A stretch of 64,000 nt of DNA from the NCBI GenBank assembly GCA_964543035.1, contig CAZIVL010000001.1, positions 236,159-300,158 of the forward strand, given 5' to 3'. Positions 51,273-62,301 of the stretch are shown in pieces. Under the pieces are notes generated by a model. That model worked only from the letters and a program-made list of their open reading frames with translations, ran no database searches and was not told where the DNA came from. Both the position numbers and the translations under genes were made by a program. How positions within the stretch are numbered: the first letter of the stretch is position 1; each line of letters begins with the position of its first letter. The DNA is from an uncultured Gammaproteobacteria bacterium. Its GTDB lineage: Bacteria > Patescibacteriota > Microgenomatia > CAZETR01 > Amesbacteraceae.

Positions 51273-52112
51273 ATGACAGATCGTCAAAATCAAAAATTAG
51301 AGCAACTTCTTGCCAACACCGGGGACATCGCTCTAAAAAGAAGAGCTCGAAGGATAATTCAAGAAATTGACCCAAAGCCAGGAGACAAGATTCTTGATGT
51401 TGGATGTGGCGATGGATATTATTTGTATTTGTTGTCAAATTTGGGTGTGCGTCTTTCCTTGGTAGGTACGGATTTGGATTCGGCAGGGATGGCCAGTGGT
51501 AAGAAAAATCTTAAAGGAAAACGTATTCGCTTTATTGAAGCAGATCTTATGAAGCCACTTCCATTCAAAAAGAATTACTTTGACAAAGTTGTCATGTCTG
51601 AAGTAGCAGAACACTTGCCCAACGACCTTACCGGTCTGAAAAATGTTCAAAAGAGTCTAAAACCTGGTGGAGTTCTCTGTCTTTCCGTGCCAAACAAAAA
51701 TTATCCCTTGCTCTGGGACCCGGTCAATTGGTTTCTAGAAAGAATTACCGGAAGACACATTGTTTCTGGTTTTTGGGCTGGTCTTTGGAATCAGCATTTA
51801 CGGTTATACACACCCATTCAAATAAGTGATGTTGTCAGGCGAGCAGGTTTTAAAATTTCTTGTCTTGAAAGTCTTACTTTTTGGTCTTTGCCCTTCAATC
51901 ACAATCTCATAAACTTTGGGGCCAGAAGGTTACATGGAGGAGCTCTGTCAAAAGCAGATTCAGACGCCATAAATAAGTTTAAACCCGCAAAAAGCAGGCC
52001 GTGGTACATAGAATTATTTTTTAGGGTATCTCAAGCAATAGACAGCCTGAATGATATTTGGACACCTAGCCCAGATTGGGGTGTGGGTGTATTTATCAAG
52101 GCAATAAAATGA
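51273..52112 (+). CDS. class I SAM-dependent methyltransferase
   Basis: ILDVGCGDGYY (motif I) ... VVMSEVAEHL. The ATG directly follows the upstream TAA. Confidence 0.75.
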   Translation: MTDRQNQKLEQLLANTGDIALKRRARRIIQEIDPKPGDKILDVGCGDGYYLYLLSNLGVRLSLVGTDLDSAGMASGKKNLKGKRIRFIEADLMKPLPFKKNYFDKVVMSEVAEHLPNDLTGLKNVQKSLKPGGVLCLSVPNKNYPLLWDPVNWFLERITGRHIVSGFWAGLWNQHLRLYTPIQISDVVRRAGFKISCLESLTFWSLPFNHNLINFGARRLHGGALSKADSDAINKFKPAKSRPWYIELFFRVSQAIDSLNDIWTPSPDWGVGVFIKAIK

Positions 52113-52833
52113 TAAGAACATCATTATCAGTAATTCTTCCCGCCTACAATGAAGAGGAAAACATCTCGTTCATAATTAAAAACGTCGAGGAATATCTAAA
52201 AAAAAAATTAAGGATTTTGAAATAATTGTTGTTGATGACGGCAGCACGGACAATACATCTGTCAAAGTAAAAAAACTTATATCTAGTAGATCGTATCTTC
52301 GTCTGATTAGCTATACTCCAAATAAGGGCTATGGTCATGCACTGCGAACAGGTTTTTTAAGTGCAAGAAAATCATTAGTGTTCTACACAGATTCTGATAG
52401 TCAATTTGATATTTCTGATTTAGACATTGTCCTGCCGATGGCCAATTATTACGATATTGTGGCCGGATACAGGCTAAATCGACAAGATCCATTGATGCGG
52501 ATATTTATAGCATTCGTCTACAATCGTTTAATAAAATTAACATTAGGCTTGTCTATCAGAGACGTCGATTGTTCTTTTAAAATATATAATCGAAAAGTAT
52601 TTGAGTCAATTACAATGACCTCTGATACTGGTCTAATAGATGCGGAGGTTTTAATCAAAGCGAAAAAAAAAGGGTTTTCTATAACGCAAGTAGGAGTGCG
52701 TCATTTTCCGAGAGTAAGGGGAAAAACAATGTACGAAGTAGGACAAAGAAATCACTTTTTTGCATTTGTCCGTCCTCAAGTTATTATTGATTTACTTTAC
52801 GAAATATTTAAGCTAAAAAAGGAAGTTTTATGA
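52109..52833 (+). pseudogene. GT2 polyprenyl-phosphate sugar synthase (DPM1/GtrB-like) disrupted by a frameshift in an A10 homopolymer (52198-52207)
   Basis: Frame 0 from ATG 52109 reads MIRTSLSVILPAYNEEENISFIIKNVEEYLKKK and then stops at 52223. Frame +2 is open from 52180 and reads ...KKKIKDFEIIVVDDGSTDNT...YTDSDSQFD...CSFKIY to 52833. One extra A (A11) would restore YLKKKIKDFEIIVVDDGS. The ORF track lists only the 3' fragment (52378..52833). Confidence 0.7.
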
Positions 52834-53804
52834 AAAAGTTTTCCTTAGTTTCAATTATTGTTCCTCTTTACGTAATAGAGAAAAGATTTTTTATTGATTT
52901 GCATCGATTTGCCAGTCTTGATTATCCAAATTTTGAAATACTAATAGTTACTGACAAAAAAGTAGTGTTTCCAAAAATTAAAAAACTTAATATACGTCTA
53001 ATTATCACTGGACACACAAAAACAGGTCCTGCAGAAAAAAGAGATATAGCAATTGCAAAGGCCAGAGGAGAAATCTGTGCATTTATTGATGACGATGCTT
53101 ACCCAAGACCCGATTGGCTGTCGAGAGCAATGCTTATTATGAACAAATATAAAGTGTCTGCAGTCTGTGGGCCTGGTGTTACTCCTCCAGAAGATGATTA
53201 TTGGAGGCAAATGACAGGAATCGTATATAGTTCATTTTTCTGTGGGGGCCATGCTCAATACAGATTTGTACAACAATCCGCTCGGTATGTGTATGATTAT
53301 CCTGCCTATAATTTGTTGGTTAGAACGAAAGCGCTAAAATCAGTAGGAGGATATGGAAATCATTTTTACGGGGGTGAAGACACATTTTTGTGTCTTAAGC
53401 TAATTCGTCTTGGTCACCAGATTCGTTACGATCCATCAATTGTAGTATTTCATCACAGAAGACCTTTATACATAAGTTATCTAAAGCAAATTGCAAATAT
53501 TGGTTTACATAGAGGATACTTTGCCAGAGTCTTTAAGAAGACTTCGGCCTATCCTGGGTATTTTCTTCCATCCGTTCTTTTTTTAGGTCTTAGCGCTCTA
53601 ATAATTACCTCTTTTTTTATTGAAATGTCACGAATCACACTTGCAATTTTATTTCCTACAATGTTGCTACTTGCCATGATAAGCGTGATAAAAAAGACCT
53701 CTATTTTAAACTCGTTTATTGTGGCCTGGGGAATTATATTTACTCACGTTGCCTATGGGGCAAGTTTTATTAGAGGCTACCTTACTTCAAAACTAATCCA
53801 CTAG
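52830..53804 (+). CDS. GT2 glycosyltransferase with C-terminal TM helices
   Basis: ATGA overlap. VSIIVPLY...ILIVTDKK...FIDDDAYP. Two or three C-terminal TM helices. Confidence 0.7.
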   Translation: MKKFSLVSIIVPLYVIEKRFFIDLHRFASLDYPNFEILIVTDKKVVFPKIKKLNIRLIITGHTKTGPAEKRDIAIAKARGEICAFIDDDAYPRPDWLSRAMLIMNKYKVSAVCGPGVTPPEDDYWRQMTGIVYSSFFCGGHAQYRFVQQSARYVYDYPAYNLLVRTKALKSVGGYGNHFYGGEDTFLCLKLIRLGHQIRYDPSIVVFHHRRPLYISYLKQIANIGLHRGYFARVFKKTSAYPGYFLPSVLFLGLSALIITSFFIEMSRITLAILFPTMLLLAMISVIKKTSILNSFIVAWGIIFTHVAYGASFIRGYLTSKLIH

Positions 53805-54832
53805 ATACTCAGCATTTTCCTAATCATTCTTATGCCTGTTGGATTTGTCATAGACTTGATTACCAGCAAATCAGTAAGCACAAGAGCAGTTATTGGTTCC
53901 CACAAATAAGCACTATCGCGATGTCTTACAGACAGATAAATTGATTTAATCAATTCTGGAACAAATAAATTGGCGTATATTATCCAATACACAATTTTTA
54001 ACAAATCCTGACTATTGTCAGTCCTAAACCACACAAACCGTTTGCGTTCCAAAGTAGAAAAGAAATTTCCTTCAAGGTTTCTAAGTCTCTTTTTTATAAA
54101 ATGAACAAAGTTAGACGCGTGATAATGCCTAATTTTGGCATCAGGCACAAATGCGTAAAATTGGTGTCCTTCTTCAACCATTATTTGCAATGAGTCAAGG
54201 TCATAAAAAGCAACGTCGTTCTTAATACTAGTGCTTAAAAGAAGTTTTCTTCTGTACATAATACGTCCTGAAGGAGGGACCTTGTGAGGTTCAAAACGAC
54301 ATAAAAAATAAGTCTCTTTGTCATCTACAATAGTTTCTTCAATGTCAGTCGAAAAAAATTTTAATACAGGGTCTCGTTGGGTATTGTCATATGATAGATA
54401 TCTCAAAAATGAGCTACTTTCCTTGGGCAGTCCATCTATTGCATACTCTCTTGTCAGAGAGCCAGTTATTGTGGGGTTCTGAACCAGGGGAGCAACAAGT
54501 TTCTTTAAAAAATCTTTATCGCATATTTCCATATCGGCGTCCATCCAATACACAAGGTCACCTTTGGCCATATGTAACCCAAGCCCTTTGTTGTATTCGG
54601 TTCGATAATACACTGGATGAGTTATTTTGCTTCTATCGATTGTTATCACCTTAGCGCCAAACTCTCGCAATAGTTGAGGAGAGTTATCAGTAGATTCGTC
54701 ATCTACAGCAATGTATTCAATCTTTTTTTTTGGATACGATTGTGCGGTAAGCGATGGCAATAATCTTGATAAATTAGTCGACTCGTTAAAAACAAAAAAG
54801 AGTATGGAAATGGTGGGGTATTGGACGGTCAC
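53801..54832 (-). CDS. GT2 glycosyltransferase
   Basis: ISILFFVFNESTNLSRLLPSL...EYIAVDDESTDNS...WMDADME. Confidence 0.7.
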   Translation of the reverse strand: MTVQYPTISILFFVFNESTNLSRLLPSLTAQSYPKKKIEYIAVDDESTDNSPQLLREFGAKVITIDRSKITHPVYYRTEYNKGLGLHMAKGDLVYWMDADMEICDKDFLKKLVAPLVQNPTITGSLTREYAIDGLPKESSSFLRYLSYDNTQRDPVLKFFSTDIEETIVDDKETYFLCRFEPHKVPPSGRIMYRRKLLLSTSIKNDVAFYDLDSLQIMVEEGHQFYAFVPDAKIRHYHASNFVHFIKKRLRNLEGNFFSTLERKRFVWFRTDNSQDLLKIVYWIIYANLFVPELIKSIYLSVRHRDSAYLWEPITALVLTDLLVIKSMTNPTGIRMIRKMLSI

Positions 54833-55695
54833 AGAAACTTTCTTATCAAAGTGCGAATTTTTTGAGATACCTTTGAAGTAATTAAAGGATACAATATTTT
54901 ATTTCTCAGTTCTCCTGGTCTAGCTTTAAACAAAGTGTTGTGAAACTCTTCGTCTTCTCCGGGAGCTGGTGCGTTGCTGTAATAATAAGCCGCCAACGAT
55001 TTACGAGTTACCCCATCGGGAAGGTCCATTTTTGCATAGCCATGATGACTATATTTGTCTGTCGCAAAGATCAGACATCTATTAAAAATCGGTGCAACAC
55101 TTTTTTCACACTTTGTCATGTCTTTGTCCCACATTTCCAAATTTCCTCCATATTTACTTTTCCAATTTTTGTTTAGATAGATCAAAATATTTAATCGGCG
55201 ATACTTTCCTGTCACTGGGTGTTTGTTAAAATCCGCGTGTATATCCAAAAAACTTCCTGACGAACCTTGGTGAAGGCCGCCACCCGCCAGATCCTGATCA
55301 GGTAGGACAGGATCAATGCCAGAAATACTAGCCACAATTTTTCGAAATTCTGGACTCATAAGCTCACGAAATACTTGCCTAAATATTGGAGACATTTTTG
55401 TAGTGTCTGAAAGTTGATTTTTTTTCTCTGCCACCCCGCTAAAAGCACTGCTCATCTGCATTTGGGCCACCGTAGGAAACTCCAAATACATTTTTTCTGA
55501 GGCTCTTTTTTTAAAAAAATTCTCAATTACTAAATGAGGGTAGGGTTTAGCATTTTTAAATGACTTTGAATATTTACTTAAGTTAGCTTTGATATTTTTT
55601 AGATTTATTGCACTTTCCATTTGAAAAATTATACTACGATTCGTTTTTTTGGGCCATAACATGAATTTGAATCCAACCTTTGCCCCTGTGCTCAC
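54829..55695 (-). CDS. 2OG-Fe(II) oxygenase, prolyl-4-hydroxylase-like (start uncertain; ATGs at 55695, 55662, 55620)
   Basis: HQGSSGSFLDIHAD (HxD), a second His in SHHGY, and RKS (RxS 2-oxoglutarate-binding motif). N-terminal PYPHLVIENFF typical of P4H-like 2OG oxygenases. Confidence 0.65.
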   Translation of the reverse strand: MSTGAKVGFKFMLWPKKTNRSIIFQMESAINLKNIKANLSKYSKSFKNAKPYPHLVIENFFKKRASEKMYLEFPTVAQMQMSSAFSGVAEKKNQLSDTTKMSPIFRQVFRELMSPEFRKIVASISGIDPVLPDQDLAGGGLHQGSSGSFLDIHADFNKHPVTGKYRRLNILIYLNKNWKSKYGGNLEMWDKDMTKCEKSVAPIFNRCLIFATDKYSHHGYAKMDLPDGVTRKSLAAYYYSNAPAPGEDEEFHNTLFKARPGELRNKILYPLITSKVSQKIRTLIRKFL

Positions 55696-56320
55696 TTTCT
55701 ACTTTGTCTTTTAAAAATAAAATTTCGCCTCTTTGGCCCAAAAAATGTTTTCGTATCAAGCTCAATATGTCTGCTACAAATGTCCAGATACCTCCAGAAT
55801 ATACTATGTCTTTTATTTCAAAACCTGATTTGACAAGAAAGTCTCTAATTTTTGCTTCAGAGTAATGTCTGTGACCTAAAAACCACCACGCTGGGTCTCC
55901 CAAGACACACAACAAGTTGTCGGTAACTGTAGATAAGCAAAAAATTCCCTTAGGAGATAGTACTCTCCATACCTCTTTCAGCGCCAAAAGCTCACTATTT
56001 TTTGGCAAGTGCTCAATCACATCCCACATAGTTACTACTTGAAATTTATGGTTATCAAACGGCAAACTTAAAGCAGATCCTACGACGAAATTTCCAATTT
56101 TTCGTGTCTTGGCATACTTTACAGCCTGTTCATTTGGATCAATTCCCCATACCTGTTTTGCGCCCTTGCTTATACAAGATAGCCACTGGCCTGTCCAACA
56201 CCCAATGTCTAGTACAGTTTTTCCTTTGACAATTTTTTGTGTAATTCTCGCTTCAAAACGGTGATGCAAGGACGGTAAGACATCATACAAAAAATTTACC
56301 CGCCTATCTTCCCTAATCAT
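55634..56320 (-). CDS. class I SAM-dependent methyltransferase
   Basis: VLDIGCWTGQW (motif I) ... VVTMWDVIEHL. Confidence 0.7.
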   Translation of the reverse strand: MIREDRRVNFLYDVLPSLHHRFEARITQKIVKGKTVLDIGCWTGQWLSCISKGAKQVWGIDPNEQAVKYAKTRKIGNFVVGSALSLPFDNHKFQVVTMWDVIEHLPKNSELLALKEVWRVLSPKGIFCLSTVTDNLLCVLGDPAWWFLGHRHYSEAKIRDFLVKSGFEIKDIVYSGGIWTFVADILSLIRKHFLGQRGEILFLKDKVESEHRGKGWIQIHVMAQKNES

Positions 56321-56330
56321 AGCTCGCGCT

Positions 56331-56359
56331 AGTATATAATTAAATATTGCCAGTCACAA
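56331..56359 (-). promoter_or_regulatory. candidate sigma70-like promoter for the minus-strand operon (TTGTGA-17-TATACT on the minus strand) in a 38-nt divergent intergenic region
   Basis: Minus-strand -35 is the revcomp of 56354-56359. Minus-strand -10 is the revcomp of 56331-56336, 10 nt upstream of the 56320 start codon. The same region carries TATATAAT on the plus strand upstream of the 56359 start. Confidence 0.35.
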
Positions 56360-59666: not shown

Positions 59667-60592
59667 ACACATTATCAAAATGCCGTGTATGTGACTCAAA
59701 AGAAGTCGCGCTTGTATGCAAATTTAAGGAATTAGATTATTTTAGGTGCAGAAATTGTGACCTCGTGTTTCTGAATAATCCGCCTTCCTCAAAATTCTAC
59801 AAAGAGCTCTATTCCTACTCAGCATCAAAAATGACTGACCCTGAGAGACATAACCCCTTGCTAAATATTGTTATGAGTCTCCCTTTTTCATCAATCTTTT
59901 TAAATTACATGGGAAAAGGAATTGACCAGCTTAGAGCGAGCGCTGTGTGTGATCTCTCGATCAAGAAGTCTGTTCTCGATATAGGCTGTGGAGGTGGCAA
60001 CTTTATTGCTGGCCTTGAATCTCTTGGTTGGAAAGTGGCGGGCACCGAAATGGGTAGGCATCTAGTAGAAGCATCCTCTACAAAATTAAAATCAGGTAAA
60101 GTATACATGGGAAAAGTAGATCAGATAAATTTCAAAGCCAATAAGTTTGGAGTAGTCACACTTTGGCATGTATTTGAGCATATTTTTGAAATTGGACCCA
60201 CATTAAAATCAATATCAAAAATTATTGATAAGTCGGGTACCTTAGTGATAGAGGTGCCTCATTCAAACTCACTCAACTTTAGGGTCTTTAACAAACACTG
60301 GTCACTTCTTATGCCCCCTCAGCATCTTCATTTCTGGTCCAAAAAGTCTTTTGCCACATATCTAAAAAAATTTGGATTTAGAGTATCAAATGTAGAATAC
60401 CCTCTTCATTTTCCGTTTGTCTTCTCATCTAGTCTAATAAAAGTATCACCACTTCTTATTATTTTTTTGCCTTTATGGATTCCATTATCAATTACGATGA
60501 CGCTTATTATGTCATTTCTTCGCCAGGGAGACGTAATTCGTATTTATGCAGTTTTAGATTTTGACAAGAGAAAACTTCCGATGGCCATGTAG
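59663..60592 (+). CDS. class I SAM-dependent methyltransferase with N-terminal C4 zinc-ribbon
   Basis: ATGA overlap at 59663-59666. CRVCDSKEV...CRNCDLVF (CxxC...CxxC), then VLDIGCGGGNF (motif I). Hydrophobic C-terminal tail. Confidence 0.7.
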   Translation: MNTLSKCRVCDSKEVALVCKFKELDYFRCRNCDLVFLNNPPSSKFYKELYSYSASKMTDPERHNPLLNIVMSLPFSSIFLNYMGKGIDQLRASAVCDLSIKKSVLDIGCGGGNFIAGLESLGWKVAGTEMGRHLVEASSTKLKSGKVYMGKVDQINFKANKFGVVTLWHVFEHIFEIGPTLKSISKIIDKSGTLVIEVPHSNSLNFRVFNKHWSLLMPPQHLHFWSKKSFATYLKKFGFRVSNVEYPLHFPFVFSSSLIKVSPLLIIFLPLWIPLSITMTLIMSFLRQGDVIRIYAVLDFDKRKLPMAM

Positions 60593-62301
60593 TCCAGTCC
60601 TGTGTCATAAAAACATTTTATTGCTTCTTCTGGATTTCCCACAATTGGTTGACCTCTGATATTAAAAGAAGTGTTTAGTATTACTGGAACTTTGGTCAAT
60701 TTCCCAAACTCTTCTACTAGTTTGTAATACATGGGATTGTGTTTAAGTGAAATCCTTTGAGGTCTAGCAGTTCCATCTACATGAACGACAGCAGGAATTT
60801 CTTTGGCCCTTTTTTCAGGAACATCAAATGAAATAATCATAAAATCAGGTTTAGGGGTAGGAGACTCAAGATACATCTCCACTCCTTTATCTGTCATCGA
60901 GGGACAAAACGGTCTAAATGGCTCTCGATATTTTACCCTTGAGTTAATTATATCCTTGTTCTCGGCCTTTCGAGGGTCCATAAGGATTGATCTGTTGCCT
61001 AGCGCTCTCGGACCTGATTCCATCTTTCCTTGAAACCAGCCTACAATTTTTCCTTTTGCAAGAAGCGATGCCGTGTCTTTAATTAACTTAGAAGTACTTG
61101 TGTACTTTGTGTATTTTATTTGTCTTGTCTTGAGGGCGGATTCAATCTCAGCATCAGAAAATTCCGTGCCCCAATATGCGTGCTCAATCTTACGGCCAGG
61201 TACTTTTCGAGGAGCAGGATAATTATGATACGCCCACAATGCCGCTCCTACCCCAAGTCCTCCATCCCCAGCATCGGGAAAAACATACATATCCTCCAAA
61301 AGACCTGCTTCCCAAATTCTCTGATTCATCTTTACATTCAAAAAGACTCCTCCGCCCGCGGCCAGCTTTTTTACACCAAGCTTTTTAATCCATGGCAACA
61401 AGAAGTTTAACATCTGCTCTTCCAGGACCCTCTGCGCTTCAGCCGCAATATCTTCTCTGCCATATCTATCAACTAGTTTTTTTACTTGCTCACTCTGGGG
61501 GTAATGCCAATGATCAACTCCATTAGCGTGCCAGCTCGAATACGCACCGAAGTTATATGGTTTAACTAGCTTGCCATCTTTATATTTCGGAACAATGTCG
61601 TCTAGTAGTCCACGAGTTTTTGTGGTCTTTCCATAAGGGGCCAGGCCCATCACTTTTCCTTCACCTTCGTTTATTTGCCAGCCTAGAGCCTCTGTCACAA
61701 TACTGTAAAAAAATCCCAACGATCCAGATCTCCCTATTTTTAACACTGGAGTCAATTCGCCATTCTCGCCAATCCACAAAGTTTGTGATAAAGCATATCC
61801 ACTTCCATCCGATGTCACAACTAAACATCTGTCTTTAAAACCCGATCCATAATACGCAGCGGCAGCGTGTGAAAGATGATGACTTACTTGAATGACCTTG
61901 GCGTCTTTTGATAATAAGTATTTCTTCTGATAAATAGGAAATTCCTGTTTTGAAAAAATTTTAGCCTTGTTAACTAAATTGTGTAAATTGCGTACCACAA
62001 AATCTACATAGTAGTCGACCTGATTTGGGAAGTCTTTTTCAATTTCCAACACTTCTGTCTCGGGGTTACCAAACAACATTCTTATTTCTGGAATCTCAGT
62101 TAGCTCTGGTACCACAACCAAATCCAAGTCTTTAGAAGAAATACCAGTAGTCTTCAAACACGTCTCAAGAGATTTCACTGGCAAGGATACACAATGTTTA
62201 ATGTTTACCAGTCTTTCTTCTTGGATATTAAAAGAAACTTTTCCGTCCTGAACAAGAGCCACACTAGAATCGTGTCCTCGGTGAATTCCTAATATATTCA
62301 T
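60544..62301 (-). CDS. carbamoyltransferase, NodU/CmcH/TobZ family
   Basis: 585 aa. N-terminal MNILGIHRGHDSSVALV (Kae1/HypF-like carbamoyltransferase N domain) and a C-terminal YrdC-like region. Its 3' end overlaps the convergent methyltransferase gene by 49 nt. Confidence 0.8.
   Translation of the reverse strand: MNILGIHRGHDSSVALVQDGKVSFNIQEERLVNIKHCVSLPVKSLETCLKTTGISSKDLDLVVVPELTEIPEIRMLFGNPETEVLEIEKDFPNQVDYYVDFVVRNLHNLVNKAKIFSKQEFPIYQKKYLLSKDAKVIQVSHHLSHAAAAYYGSGFKDRCLVVTSDGSGYALSQTLWIGENGELTPVLKIGRSGSLGFFYSIVTEALGWQINEGEGKVMGLAPYGKTTKTRGLLDDIVPKYKDGKLVKPYNFGAYSSWHANGVDHWHYPQSEQVKKLVDRYGREDIAAEAQRVLEEQMLNFLLPWIKKLGVKKLAAGGGVFLNVKMNQRIWEAGLLEDMYVFPDAGDGGLGVGAALWAYHNYPAPRKVPGRKIEHAYWGTEFSDAEIESALKTRQIKYTKYTSTSKLIKDTASLLAKGKIVGWFQGKMESGPRALGNRSILMDPRKAENKDIINSRVKYREPFRPFCPSMTDKGVEMYLESPTPKPDFMIISFDVPEKRAKEIPAVVHVDGTARPQRISLKHNPMYYKLVEEFGKLTKVPVILNTSFNIRGQPIVGNPEEAIKCFYDTGLDYMAIGSFLLSKSKTA

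Follow-up and report, generated by a model that had tools for sequence, protein, structure and literature searches.

What does an Fe(II)/2-oxoglutarate (2OG) oxygenase do when it is encoded between a methyltransferase and a glycosyltransferase: does it hydroxylate a protein that is then glycosylated, or does it modify a sugar? The question is raised by a 64,000-nucleotide stretch of contig CAZIVL010000001.1 (positions 236,159 to 300,158 of the forward strand; assembly GCA_964543035.1, from an uncultured bacterium that GTDB places in the Patescibacteriota), which we refer to, at its full length, as the window. A prediction made from the sequence alone described three co-directional genes there, encoding a class I S-adenosylmethionine (SAM)-dependent methyltransferase (MT), the oxygenase, and a family 2 glycosyltransferase (GT2). 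It proposed that the oxygenase might create a hydroxyproline (Hyp) acceptor for O-glycosylation or, alternatively, might oxidatively modify a sugar. We find that the middle gene encodes an intact, predicted single-domain Fe(II)/2OG dioxygenase of a large and uncharacterized bacterial family. This widespread, prolyl-4-hydroxylase (P4H)-like family has apparently been recruited to glycan tailoring, and we estimate a probability of roughly 0.55 that the oxygenase of the window is an accessory glycan-tailoring enzyme acting together with O-methylation.

The MT-oxygenase-GT2a operon

Open reading frame (ORF) calling and Pfam searches agree with the original prediction in placing an MT, an oxygenase, and a GT2 (here called GT2a) in that order on the minus strand (Table 1). 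The MT matches Methyltransf_11 (E = 2.4e-17, 63.8 bits) and Methyltransf_25 (E = 8.6e-17, 62.1 bits) and has a glycine-rich SAM motif I, VLDIGCWTG, at residue 36, which together identify it as a class I SAM-dependent MT; no specific NCBIfam model attains its cutoff for this protein. GT2a is identified as a GT2 enzyme by its match to PF00535 (E = 2e-17, 64.1 bits against a cutoff of 23.3) and by a DAD motif at residues 98 to 100. No hydrophobic or transmembrane (TM) segment is predicted in GT2a by Kyte-Doolittle analysis, and we rejected its assignment as a GtrB/ArnC-type polyprenyl-phosphate transferase on the grounds that it has no TM segment and that its matches to such enzymes are weak and generic.

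The three genes had been described as overlapping or abutting. This is true of the oxygenase and GT2a, in which the stop codon of the former and the start codon of the latter share the four nucleotides GTGA, an overlap that is predicted to couple the translation of the two genes. It is not true of the MT and the oxygenase, since the most likely oxygenase start (ATG at 55620, giving 263 amino acids [aa]) lies 13 nucleotides (nt) past the MT stop codon, and a 62-nt overlap arises solely with the longest ORF (GTG at 55695). We favor the ATG at 55620 because homologues of the oxygenase are ~265 aa long and their alignments begin at M26 of the longest ORF. In all, four starts for this gene are in use, giving proteins of 288 aa (GTG at 55695), 277 aa (ATG at 55662), 263 aa (ATG at 55620, from homology), and 220 aa (the NCBI record). 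The 220-aa call would drop a conserved N-terminal strand, PYPHLVIENFF. A promoter and terminator scan found no terminator within the trio, and promoter-like sites there occur at the frequency expected by chance; one of them lies upstream of the MT (56359-56331) and is not significant. From the arrangement of the genes, we conclude that MT, oxygenase, and GT2a constitute a predicted translationally coupled operon.

Family, active site, and predicted fold of the oxygenase

The oxygenase ORF (54829-55695) matches 2OG-FeII_Oxy_3 (PF13640) with an E value of 3e-17 (63.8 bits against a cutoff of 27). The HxD...H...RxS pattern that had been read from the sequence is present, and its residues are invariant or nearly so in an alignment of 43 family members (Table 1). 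In 2OG oxygenases, the RxS motif binds the C5 carboxylate of 2OG. The structural model of the protein is a confident double-stranded beta-helix (DSBH; predicted local distance difference test score [pLDDT], 93). The profile score, the HxD...H and RxS residues, and the DSBH fold all place the protein in the P4H-like branch of PF13640, which bears out the P4H-like character that had been proposed for it. H117, R141, K67, and E65 are further residues that do not vary in the family.

Structure comparison refines this placement. The closest folds are those of Tpa1/OGFOD1. The sugar-nucleoside oxygenases PasI and PolD score 20.1 and 19.7, respectively; PHD-type prolyl hydroxylases, among them Dictyostelium PhyA and Pseudomonas PPHD, score 18.7 to 18.9; the orthosomycin oxygenases HygX, AviO1, EvdO2, EvdMO1, and EvdO1 score 12.6 to 14.6; and AlkB homologues score 10.9 to 12.8. 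The model therefore places the predicted oxygenase in the Tpa1/OGFOD1-PHD-PolD/PasI branch of the superfamily and not among AlkB-like enzymes. Neither fold nor profile assigns it to the AlkB-type nucleic acid repair dioxygenases, and this assignment was rejected. The branch in which it falls includes protein-acting and sugar-acting enzymes alike, and because PasI and PolD score nearly as high as the closest folds, a P4H-like fold does not by itself identify the substrate as a protein.

The family is large. A word-indexed search recovered 1078 homologues, a profile search recovered 1,966 clusters (50% identity) at an E value of ≤1e-30, and at least 588 oxygenase loci were confirmed in GTDB species-representative genomes. 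Among the loci listed, family members occur in Bacteroidota, Cyanobacteria, Planctomycetota, Actinomycetota, Proteobacteria, and other phyla. No curated NCBIfam model attains its cutoff for the oxygenase. The FlmC family model (NF052475) was rejected at 20.8 bits against a curated cutoff of 240, as was the YhhC model (NF041706), which is considered below.

In the model, the C-terminal end of the protein forms two helices (residues 239 to 248 and 250 to 262). Across the 43 homologues, the tail is variable in sequence, has a mean net charge of +5.3, and has a mean maximum hydrophobic moment of 0.59, compared with a 95th percentile of 0.44 for the body of the protein. A cationic amphipathic tail of this kind may anchor the oxygenase at the membrane surface.

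Table 1. Positions in the window of the operon genes, the convergent GT2b gene, and the sequence features of the oxygenase (residues in 263-aa numbering)
Feature	Position	Strand	Basis
MT, class I, SAM dependent, 228 aa, first gene of the operon	55634..56320	-	Pfam
Fe(II)/2OG oxygenase, most likely 263 aa	54829..55620 (longest ORF to 55695)	-	Pfam; starts of homologues
GT2a, family 2 glycosyltransferase, 343 aa, last gene of the operon	53801..54832	-	PF00535 (Glycos_transf_2)
GTGA overlap of oxygenase stop and GT2a start, 4 nt	54829..54832	-	Read from sequence
HxD iron-binding motif: H128 (55237-55239, invariant) and D130 (55231-55233, conserved in ≥90% of family members)	55231..55239	-	43-sequence alignment
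Distal iron-binding His, H193 (invariant)	55042..55044	-	43-sequence alignment
RxS motif: R206 (55003-55005) and S208 (54997-54999), invariant	54997..55005	-	43-sequence alignment
C-terminal cationic amphipathic tail, residues ~235-263, putative membrane-surface anchor	54832..54918	-	Model and homologues
GT2b, membrane-anchored GT2, 324 aa, convergent to GT2a	52830..53804	+	PF00535 (E = 9.8e-13)

Gene neighborhoods of close relatives

Six close-clade relatives of the oxygenase were found, with 57 to 68% identity to it. In one of these (L086, 67% identity), the MT, the oxygenase, and GT2a occur in identical order, the partners are orthologous to those of the window (47% identity for the MT and 49% for GT2a), and the oxygenase and GT2a genes are joined by a 4-nt ATGA overlap that is equivalent to the GTGA of the window. 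In three others, the oxygenase adjoins an orthologue either of GT2a or of GT2b, the GT2 gene that is convergent to GT2a in the window, and MT genes are no more than three genes away. The order in L002 (57% identity) is GT2-oxygenase-family 1 glycosyltransferase-MT-MT-GT2a, with a GT2a that is 43% identical to that of the window and with dTDP-sugar genes around it. In L005 (62%), the oxygenase is convergent with a GT2b orthologue (43% identity), which is followed by a GT2, an MT, and a PMT-type GT-C glycosyltransferase. In L087 (68%), the order is epimerase-MT-MT-GT2b-oxygenase, and the GT2b orthologue is 45% identical to that of the window. The locus of L088 is too short for its context to be assessed. 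A metagenome scan with the window protein yielded five distant or partial matches (37% identity or short fragments) and no further close relatives. Co-localization is thus kept in the close relatives; the exact trio recurs once, in L086.

GT2b overlaps GT2a by 4 nt in the window, has hydrophobic segments at residues 241 to 314, and recurs beside the oxygenase or GT2a in relatives. The oxygenase of L087 (L087:3732-4555, protein P0007) is split into ORFs of 90 and 183 aa in overlapping frames, so that this copy is frameshifted and possibly pseudogenized, which fits a gene that is dispensable.

GT2a orthologues without a nearby oxygenase

The family of GT2a is narrow, comprising 16 proteins at an E value of ≤1e-10, one of which is named "Patescibacteria group bacterium." Together with the style of the locus, this homologue points to a probable Patescibacteria source for the window. 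In three loci (L095, L096, and L097; 17 kb fetched for each) that carry GT2a orthologues with 39 to 49% identity, gene tables and tblastn searches revealed no oxygenase homologue within 8 kb of GT2a. These are MT-rich loci that closely resemble that of the window. The presence of GT2a orthologues with no oxygenase nearby suggests that the oxygenase is an accessory gene inserted into a GT2 backbone, and it argues against the idea that the GT2 needs a hydroxylated acceptor.

The three loci have 5 to 7 methyltransferases per 17 kb, including the Methyltransf_21 and Methyltransf_24 types, which suggests that members of a related, Patescibacteria-type group may have heavily O-methylated surface glycans. 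L095 also encodes a putative counterpart of GT2b, a 324-aa GT2 with the same Pfam profile that is convergent to the GT2a orthologue.

Gene neighborhoods of distant relatives

A set of 72 loci with oxygenases that are 38 to 49% identical to that of the window was analyzed by crude gene calling, clustering of the neighboring genes, and Pfam annotation. The labeling of neighbors is seed based, and the following counts are therefore underestimates. An MT or a glycan gene lies within two genes of the oxygenase in 37 of the 72 loci, a glycan gene lies within four genes in 23, and a class I MT is immediately adjacent (position +1 or -1) in 17. We conclude that a glycan and MT signal is real across the family and that it is not uniform.

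Three classes of neighborhood recur, of which two are larger. In 11 loci from Cyanobacteria, Actinomycetota, and Planctomycetota, a ~470-aa Wzy_C-like membrane protein is encoded near the oxygenase, and in 7 of them its gene follows immediately, at +1, in the orientation of the oxygenase gene. Three of these have a Polysacc_synt_3 flippase at -1, others have one elsewhere within four genes, and family 4 glycosyltransferase (GT4) genes are nearby. In 19 loci from Bacteroidota and related bacteria, a class I MT belonging to one of two families is encoded nearby; in 16 of them, it occupies position +1 and shares the strand of the oxygenase.

The complete flippase-oxygenase-Wzy-like order, with the flippase at -1 and the Wzy-like gene at +1, is found in L037, L055, and L062, and a Wzy-like gene at +1 is found in L045, L066, L080, and L083. 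The flippase-oxygenase-Wzy_C-like arrangement occurs in both Cyanobacteria and Actinomycetota, and several of the strains are culturable; L055 is from Aphanothece hegewaldii CCALA 016 and L062 is from Chroococcus sp. FPU101. The third class comprises smaller groups of loci with other neighbors. A TonB-dependent receptor is encoded at +1 in Bacteroidia other than the Cytophagales-type bacteria mentioned below. A LIC_10190-family membrane protein (~541 aa, with no Pfam match; NF047510, E = 1e-51 in L022) is encoded in L016, L022, and L054, at +1 in two of them and at +3 in one. In seven Cytophagales-type loci (L007, L011, L013, L015, L020, L023, and L075), a ~440-aa GWxTD-domain protein is encoded at -1 on the opposite strand, and the oxygenase in these loci is often paired with an MT. 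L007 is from Xanthocytophaga flavus and L011 is from Rhodocytophaga aerolata, which are also culturable.

Domain fusions

Fusions were sought among the best 150 of the 1,966 profile matches, several of which are long. P0219 (954 aa) consists of a GT2 domain, repeats, and the oxygenase, and P0205 (567 aa) consists of a GT2 domain (a weak match) and the oxygenase. In P0146 and P0158, which are 47% identical over their full length, the oxygenase is followed by a domain of ~270 aa. The sole Protein Data Bank (PDB) sequence match of this extra domain is CalS11, a TDP-rhamnose 3'-O-methyltransferase (E = 5e-4), and the predicted fold of the extra-domain family is closest to those of the sugar O-methyltransferases CalS11 and SpnH. 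Members of the oxygenase family are thus naturally fused to GT2 domains and to what is predicted to be a sugar O-methyltransferase-like domain.

The extra-domain family has >5,000 members that stand alone; these are ~280 aa long, come mostly from Actinomycetota, carry no Pfam domain, and are annotated as "hypothetical proteins." Judged by its predicted fold, this is probably an unannotated family of sugar O-methyltransferases.

Proposed function and alternatives

We favor sugar tailoring on the basis of the order of the trio in L086, the Wzx- and Wzy-like neighbors, the pairing with MT genes in Bacteroidota, and the fusions to GT2 and CalS11-like domains. Other tailoring genes near the trio, namely two more MT genes, a carbamoyltransferase gene, and an AsnB-like amidotransferase gene, also count toward this reading, as do the intact catalytic residues, the accessory status of the oxygenase, the conserved character of its tail, and the precedent of HygX for Fe/2OG enzymes with direct activity on oligosaccharides. 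Oxidative sugar modification had been offered as the second of two explanations for the operon; it is favored by the contexts and fusions, which leave its chemistry and its substrate unproven. We infer that the oxygenase would oxidize a sugar residue or one of its substituents in a nucleotide-activated or polyprenyl-linked intermediate, and that this would take place on the cytoplasmic side of the membrane. It might hydroxylate a C-H bond of the sugar or the substituent, with the new hydroxyl then being O-methylated by the product of the upstream MT gene, or it might oxidize an O-methyl group, which would result in demethylation or in cyclization of the methylenedioxy or orthoester type. GT2a would be an ordinary transferase that builds the chain in this pathway, with no need for hydroxylation.

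The explanation that the original prediction had put first is hydroxylation-dependent protein glycosylation, in which the oxygenase would hydroxylate proline or another residue of a surface protein that is then glycosylated by the GT2 or by GT-C enzymes, as in the PhyA/Gnt1 modification of Skp1 and in plant Hyp-O-glycosylation. The predicted translational coupling of the oxygenase to GT2a, the existence of GT2-oxygenase fusions, and the nearby PMT_2-type GT-C enzymes, which belong to a superfamily containing protein O-mannosyltransferases, are all consistent with this idea. However, GT2a orthologues in L095, L096, and L097 have no oxygenase homologue within 8 kb, and no ORF in the 64-kb window is proline rich or collagen-like (the maximum is 11% proline, in an ORF of 182 aa), although a substrate could be encoded elsewhere. 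These two observations argue against Hyp-dependent glycosylation, as do the family members encoded beside Wzx and/or Wzy-like genes in polysaccharide operons and those fused to a sugar O-methyltransferase-like domain. Our literature search found no bacterial Hyp-O-glycosylation system, and we know of none. We therefore consider protein glycosylation of this kind unlikely. Its specific form, in which a cell-surface protein of a candidate phyla radiation (CPR) bacterium would be hydroxylated and would then receive a GT2 or GT-C glycan on the new hydroxyl, as a bacterial counterpart of eukaryotic hydroxyproline O-glycosylation, is likewise disfavored and seems slightly less probable still.

A specific form of sugar tailoring, which competes with C-H hydroxylation and subsequent O-methylation, is that the oxygenase acts on the methyl group added by its partner MT, converting a sugar O-methyl to a hemiacetal that either loses formaldehyde (the methyl being a transient protecting group) or cyclizes onto an adjacent hydroxyl to give a methylenedioxy- or orthoester-type bridge. 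MT-oxygenase adjacency recurs in two phyla with MTs that are not orthologous, and the CalS11-like fusions point in the same direction. There are also chemical precedents, in that the methylenedioxy bridge of everninomicin has been proposed to arise by methylation and then oxidative cyclization (PMC13374393), and certain 2OG dioxygenases are reported to remove the methyl group from 2'-O-methyl riboses (PMC12709175). Against this, gene order is silent on the order of the reactions (the MT gene precedes the oxygenase gene in the window and follows it in Bacteroidota), and no product chemistry is known for any polysaccharide of these organisms; we regard O-methyl oxidation as an improbable but not a negligible explanation. 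A housekeeping or regulatory protein hydroxylase, of the type of PPHD acting on EF-Tu or Tpa1 acting on uS12, could also reside in a glycan locus or regulate it. The high identity across phyla (38 to 49%) would fit such a role, as would a cationic tail capable of binding RNA and the distant loci that lack glycan and MT genes alike within four genes of the oxygenase, some of which have SpoU RNA methylase, RbfA, or thiamin pyrophosphokinase genes as neighbors. A housekeeping function is nevertheless a poor fit to the patchy distribution of the oxygenase and its accessory status among closely related loci, and the single-domain structure without the Ofd1/Tpa1 C-terminal domain, the tight coupling to MT and GT2 genes, and the fusions to GT2 and sugar MT-like domains also speak against it; we consider it very unlikely. 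Least probable, to the point that we give it almost no weight, is a role in modifying ribosomally synthesized and posttranslationally modified peptides (RiPPs). The best NCBIfam match of the oxygenase is indeed NF041706, the model for YhhC-type cyclophane-peptide oxygenases (E values of 4.9e-8 and 2.5e-10 for the window protein and family member P0195, respectively), but the window protein scores 32.8 bits against the curated cutoff of 150, and a census of the window revealed no radical-SAM maturase, precursor peptide, or RiPP-type gene.

Several observations weigh against glycan tailoring by the oxygenase. Its top structural neighbors (Tpa1, OGFOD1, the PHDs, and PPHD) are protein prolyl hydroxylases, and its homologues are labeled "Tpa1-like proline 4-hydroxylase" in the sources, as well as "2OG-Fe(II) oxygenase." In 29 of the 72 distant loci, neither a recognizable glycan gene nor an MT gene lies within four genes of the oxygenase, and the MT-paired loci of Bacteroidota mostly have no glycan genes nearby, so that the family is perhaps not functionally uniform. 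The MTs of these Bacteroidota loci were rejected as orthologues of the window MT, since they match it with E values of ~1e-10, equal to those of unrelated class I MTs, and their PDB matches are generic or absent. MT and GT2 genes are very dense in Patescibacteria-type loci, which makes adjacency alone weak evidence. Among the fusions, the GT2 match of P0205 and the PilZ match of P0199 are below or near the Pfam cutoffs, that of P0199 being below. The cationic tail could bind RNA instead of a membrane. Finally, a literature search turned up no paper characterizing the oxygenase family.

The presence of an oxygenase in a glycan cluster is no great surprise by itself. To our knowledge, Fe/2OG oxygenases are barely known in bacterial cell surface glycan synthesis, the textbook cases being KdoO and LpxO, which belong to other families. 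What the present family adds is a discrepancy between the database label "proline hydroxylase" and contexts and fusions that point to sugar tailoring coupled to O-methylation; if the latter is correct, many annotations are misleading. An unrecognized oxidative modification may then exist in polysaccharides of Cyanobacteria, Actinomycetota, Bacteroidota, and CPR bacteria, possibly in the form of sugars that are C-hydroxylated, that carry methoxy groups, or that are of the methylenedioxy or orthoester type. CPR envelopes are almost unstudied, and for them the result would be one defined tailoring step within a glycan island of very large size. Culturable organisms in which the oxygenase is encoded beside Wzx/Wzy genes or is paired with an MT allow the hypothesis to be tested directly.

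Comparison with characterized oxygenases

The oxygenase is distinct from each of the characterized enzymes that it resembles. The uS12 prolyl hydroxylases Tpa1, OGFOD1, and Ofd1, which are 16 to 19% identical to it, are eukaryotic two-domain proteins of ~550 to 640 aa with a C-terminal noncatalytic DSBH. In contrast, the window oxygenase is a bacterial, single-domain protein of 263 aa that has a cationic tail and is accessory and encoded in glycan operons. The Ofd1_CTDD model (PF10637) is not among its Pfam matches at an E value of ≤0.01, so that it has no counterpart of the two-domain structure; the targets used in this comparison were 456 to 563 aa long. PolD and PasI act on a high-carbon sugar nucleoside phosphate in the biosynthesis of polyoxin-type peptidyl nucleosides. 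They are 16 to 22% identical to the oxygenase, are shorter (~200 to 235 aa), have neither the N-terminal helices nor the C-terminal tail, and are encoded in secondary-metabolite clusters. Judged by closeness of sequence and structure together with a nucleoside-antibiotic cluster context, the window oxygenase was rejected as a member of the PolD/PasI group.

With respect to PHD/EGLN, to Dictyostelium PhyA (which functions in Skp1 Hyp-glycosylation), and to PPHD, the window trio differs in having no Skp1- or Gnt1-like partners and no candidate protein substrate in the locus, and in that GT2a orthologues occur without the oxygenase. KdoO, the 3-hydroxylase that converts Kdo to Ko, and LpxO, which acts on an acyl chain, are accessory envelope-glycolipid oxygenases of the cytoplasmic face, and they may be conceptually the nearest functional analogues of the oxygenase. 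No sequence relationship to them was detected: their Pfam models are not among the oxygenase matches (E ≤ 0.01), and neither enzyme appears at the top of the structural comparison. The orthosomycin enzymes HygX, AviO1, EvdO1, EvdO2, and EvdMO1, which may also be counted with the nearest functional analogues, are Fe/2OG oxygenases that tailor oligosaccharides alongside sugar O-methyltransferases, and HygX acts on an oligosaccharide in vitro (PMC13374393). EvdMO1 is a fused methyltransferase-oxygenase, and the family of the window oxygenase includes the oxygenase-MT-like fusions P0146 and P0158; however, the orthosomycin sugar oxygenases are in a different structural branch.

The surrounding glycan island

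A Pfam census of the window found 41 ORFs outside 49-60.6 kb, including 11 GT2, 7 PMT_2 GT-C, 2 YfhO, and 3 GT4 genes, along with genes for a Wzx flippase, an AsnB-like amidotransferase, and a carbamoyltransferase. Around the trio itself are two more GT-C genes, which flank it, two more MT genes, and further GT2 and GT4 genes. Identical proteins are encoded on a 92.6-kb Logan contig and a 508-kb NCBI contig. The locus is therefore as rich in GT-C enzymes as had been predicted, and a putative glycan synthesis island extends over the whole 64-kb window. No Rfam RNA family was found in the window.

The carbamoyltransferase is of the NodU/CmcH type (Carbam_trans_N/C) and is encoded at 60544-62301 on the minus strand. 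Together with the asparagine synthase-like amidotransferase, it points to O-carbamoylation and amidation of sugars besides their methylation. At the upstream end of the operon, the divergent starts of the MT gene (56320, minus strand) and of an AftD-like GT-C gene (TTG at 56347, plus strand) are only 26 nt apart. This is an unusually tight junction with scant space for two promoters. In the public annotation, the GT-C protein is shorter by 4 aa. On the other side of the operon, a GtrB/DPM1-like GT2 gene at 52109-52833 on the plus strand is split by a frameshift in a homopolymer of 10 A residues (~52197-52206). Its N-terminal frame (MIRTSLSVILPAYNEEE...LKKK) ends at ~52222, and the remainder is in a 151-aa ORF at 52378-52833. 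One added A would give an ORF of ~241 aa, and the split could reflect an assembly error, a pseudogene, or slipped-strand phase variation.

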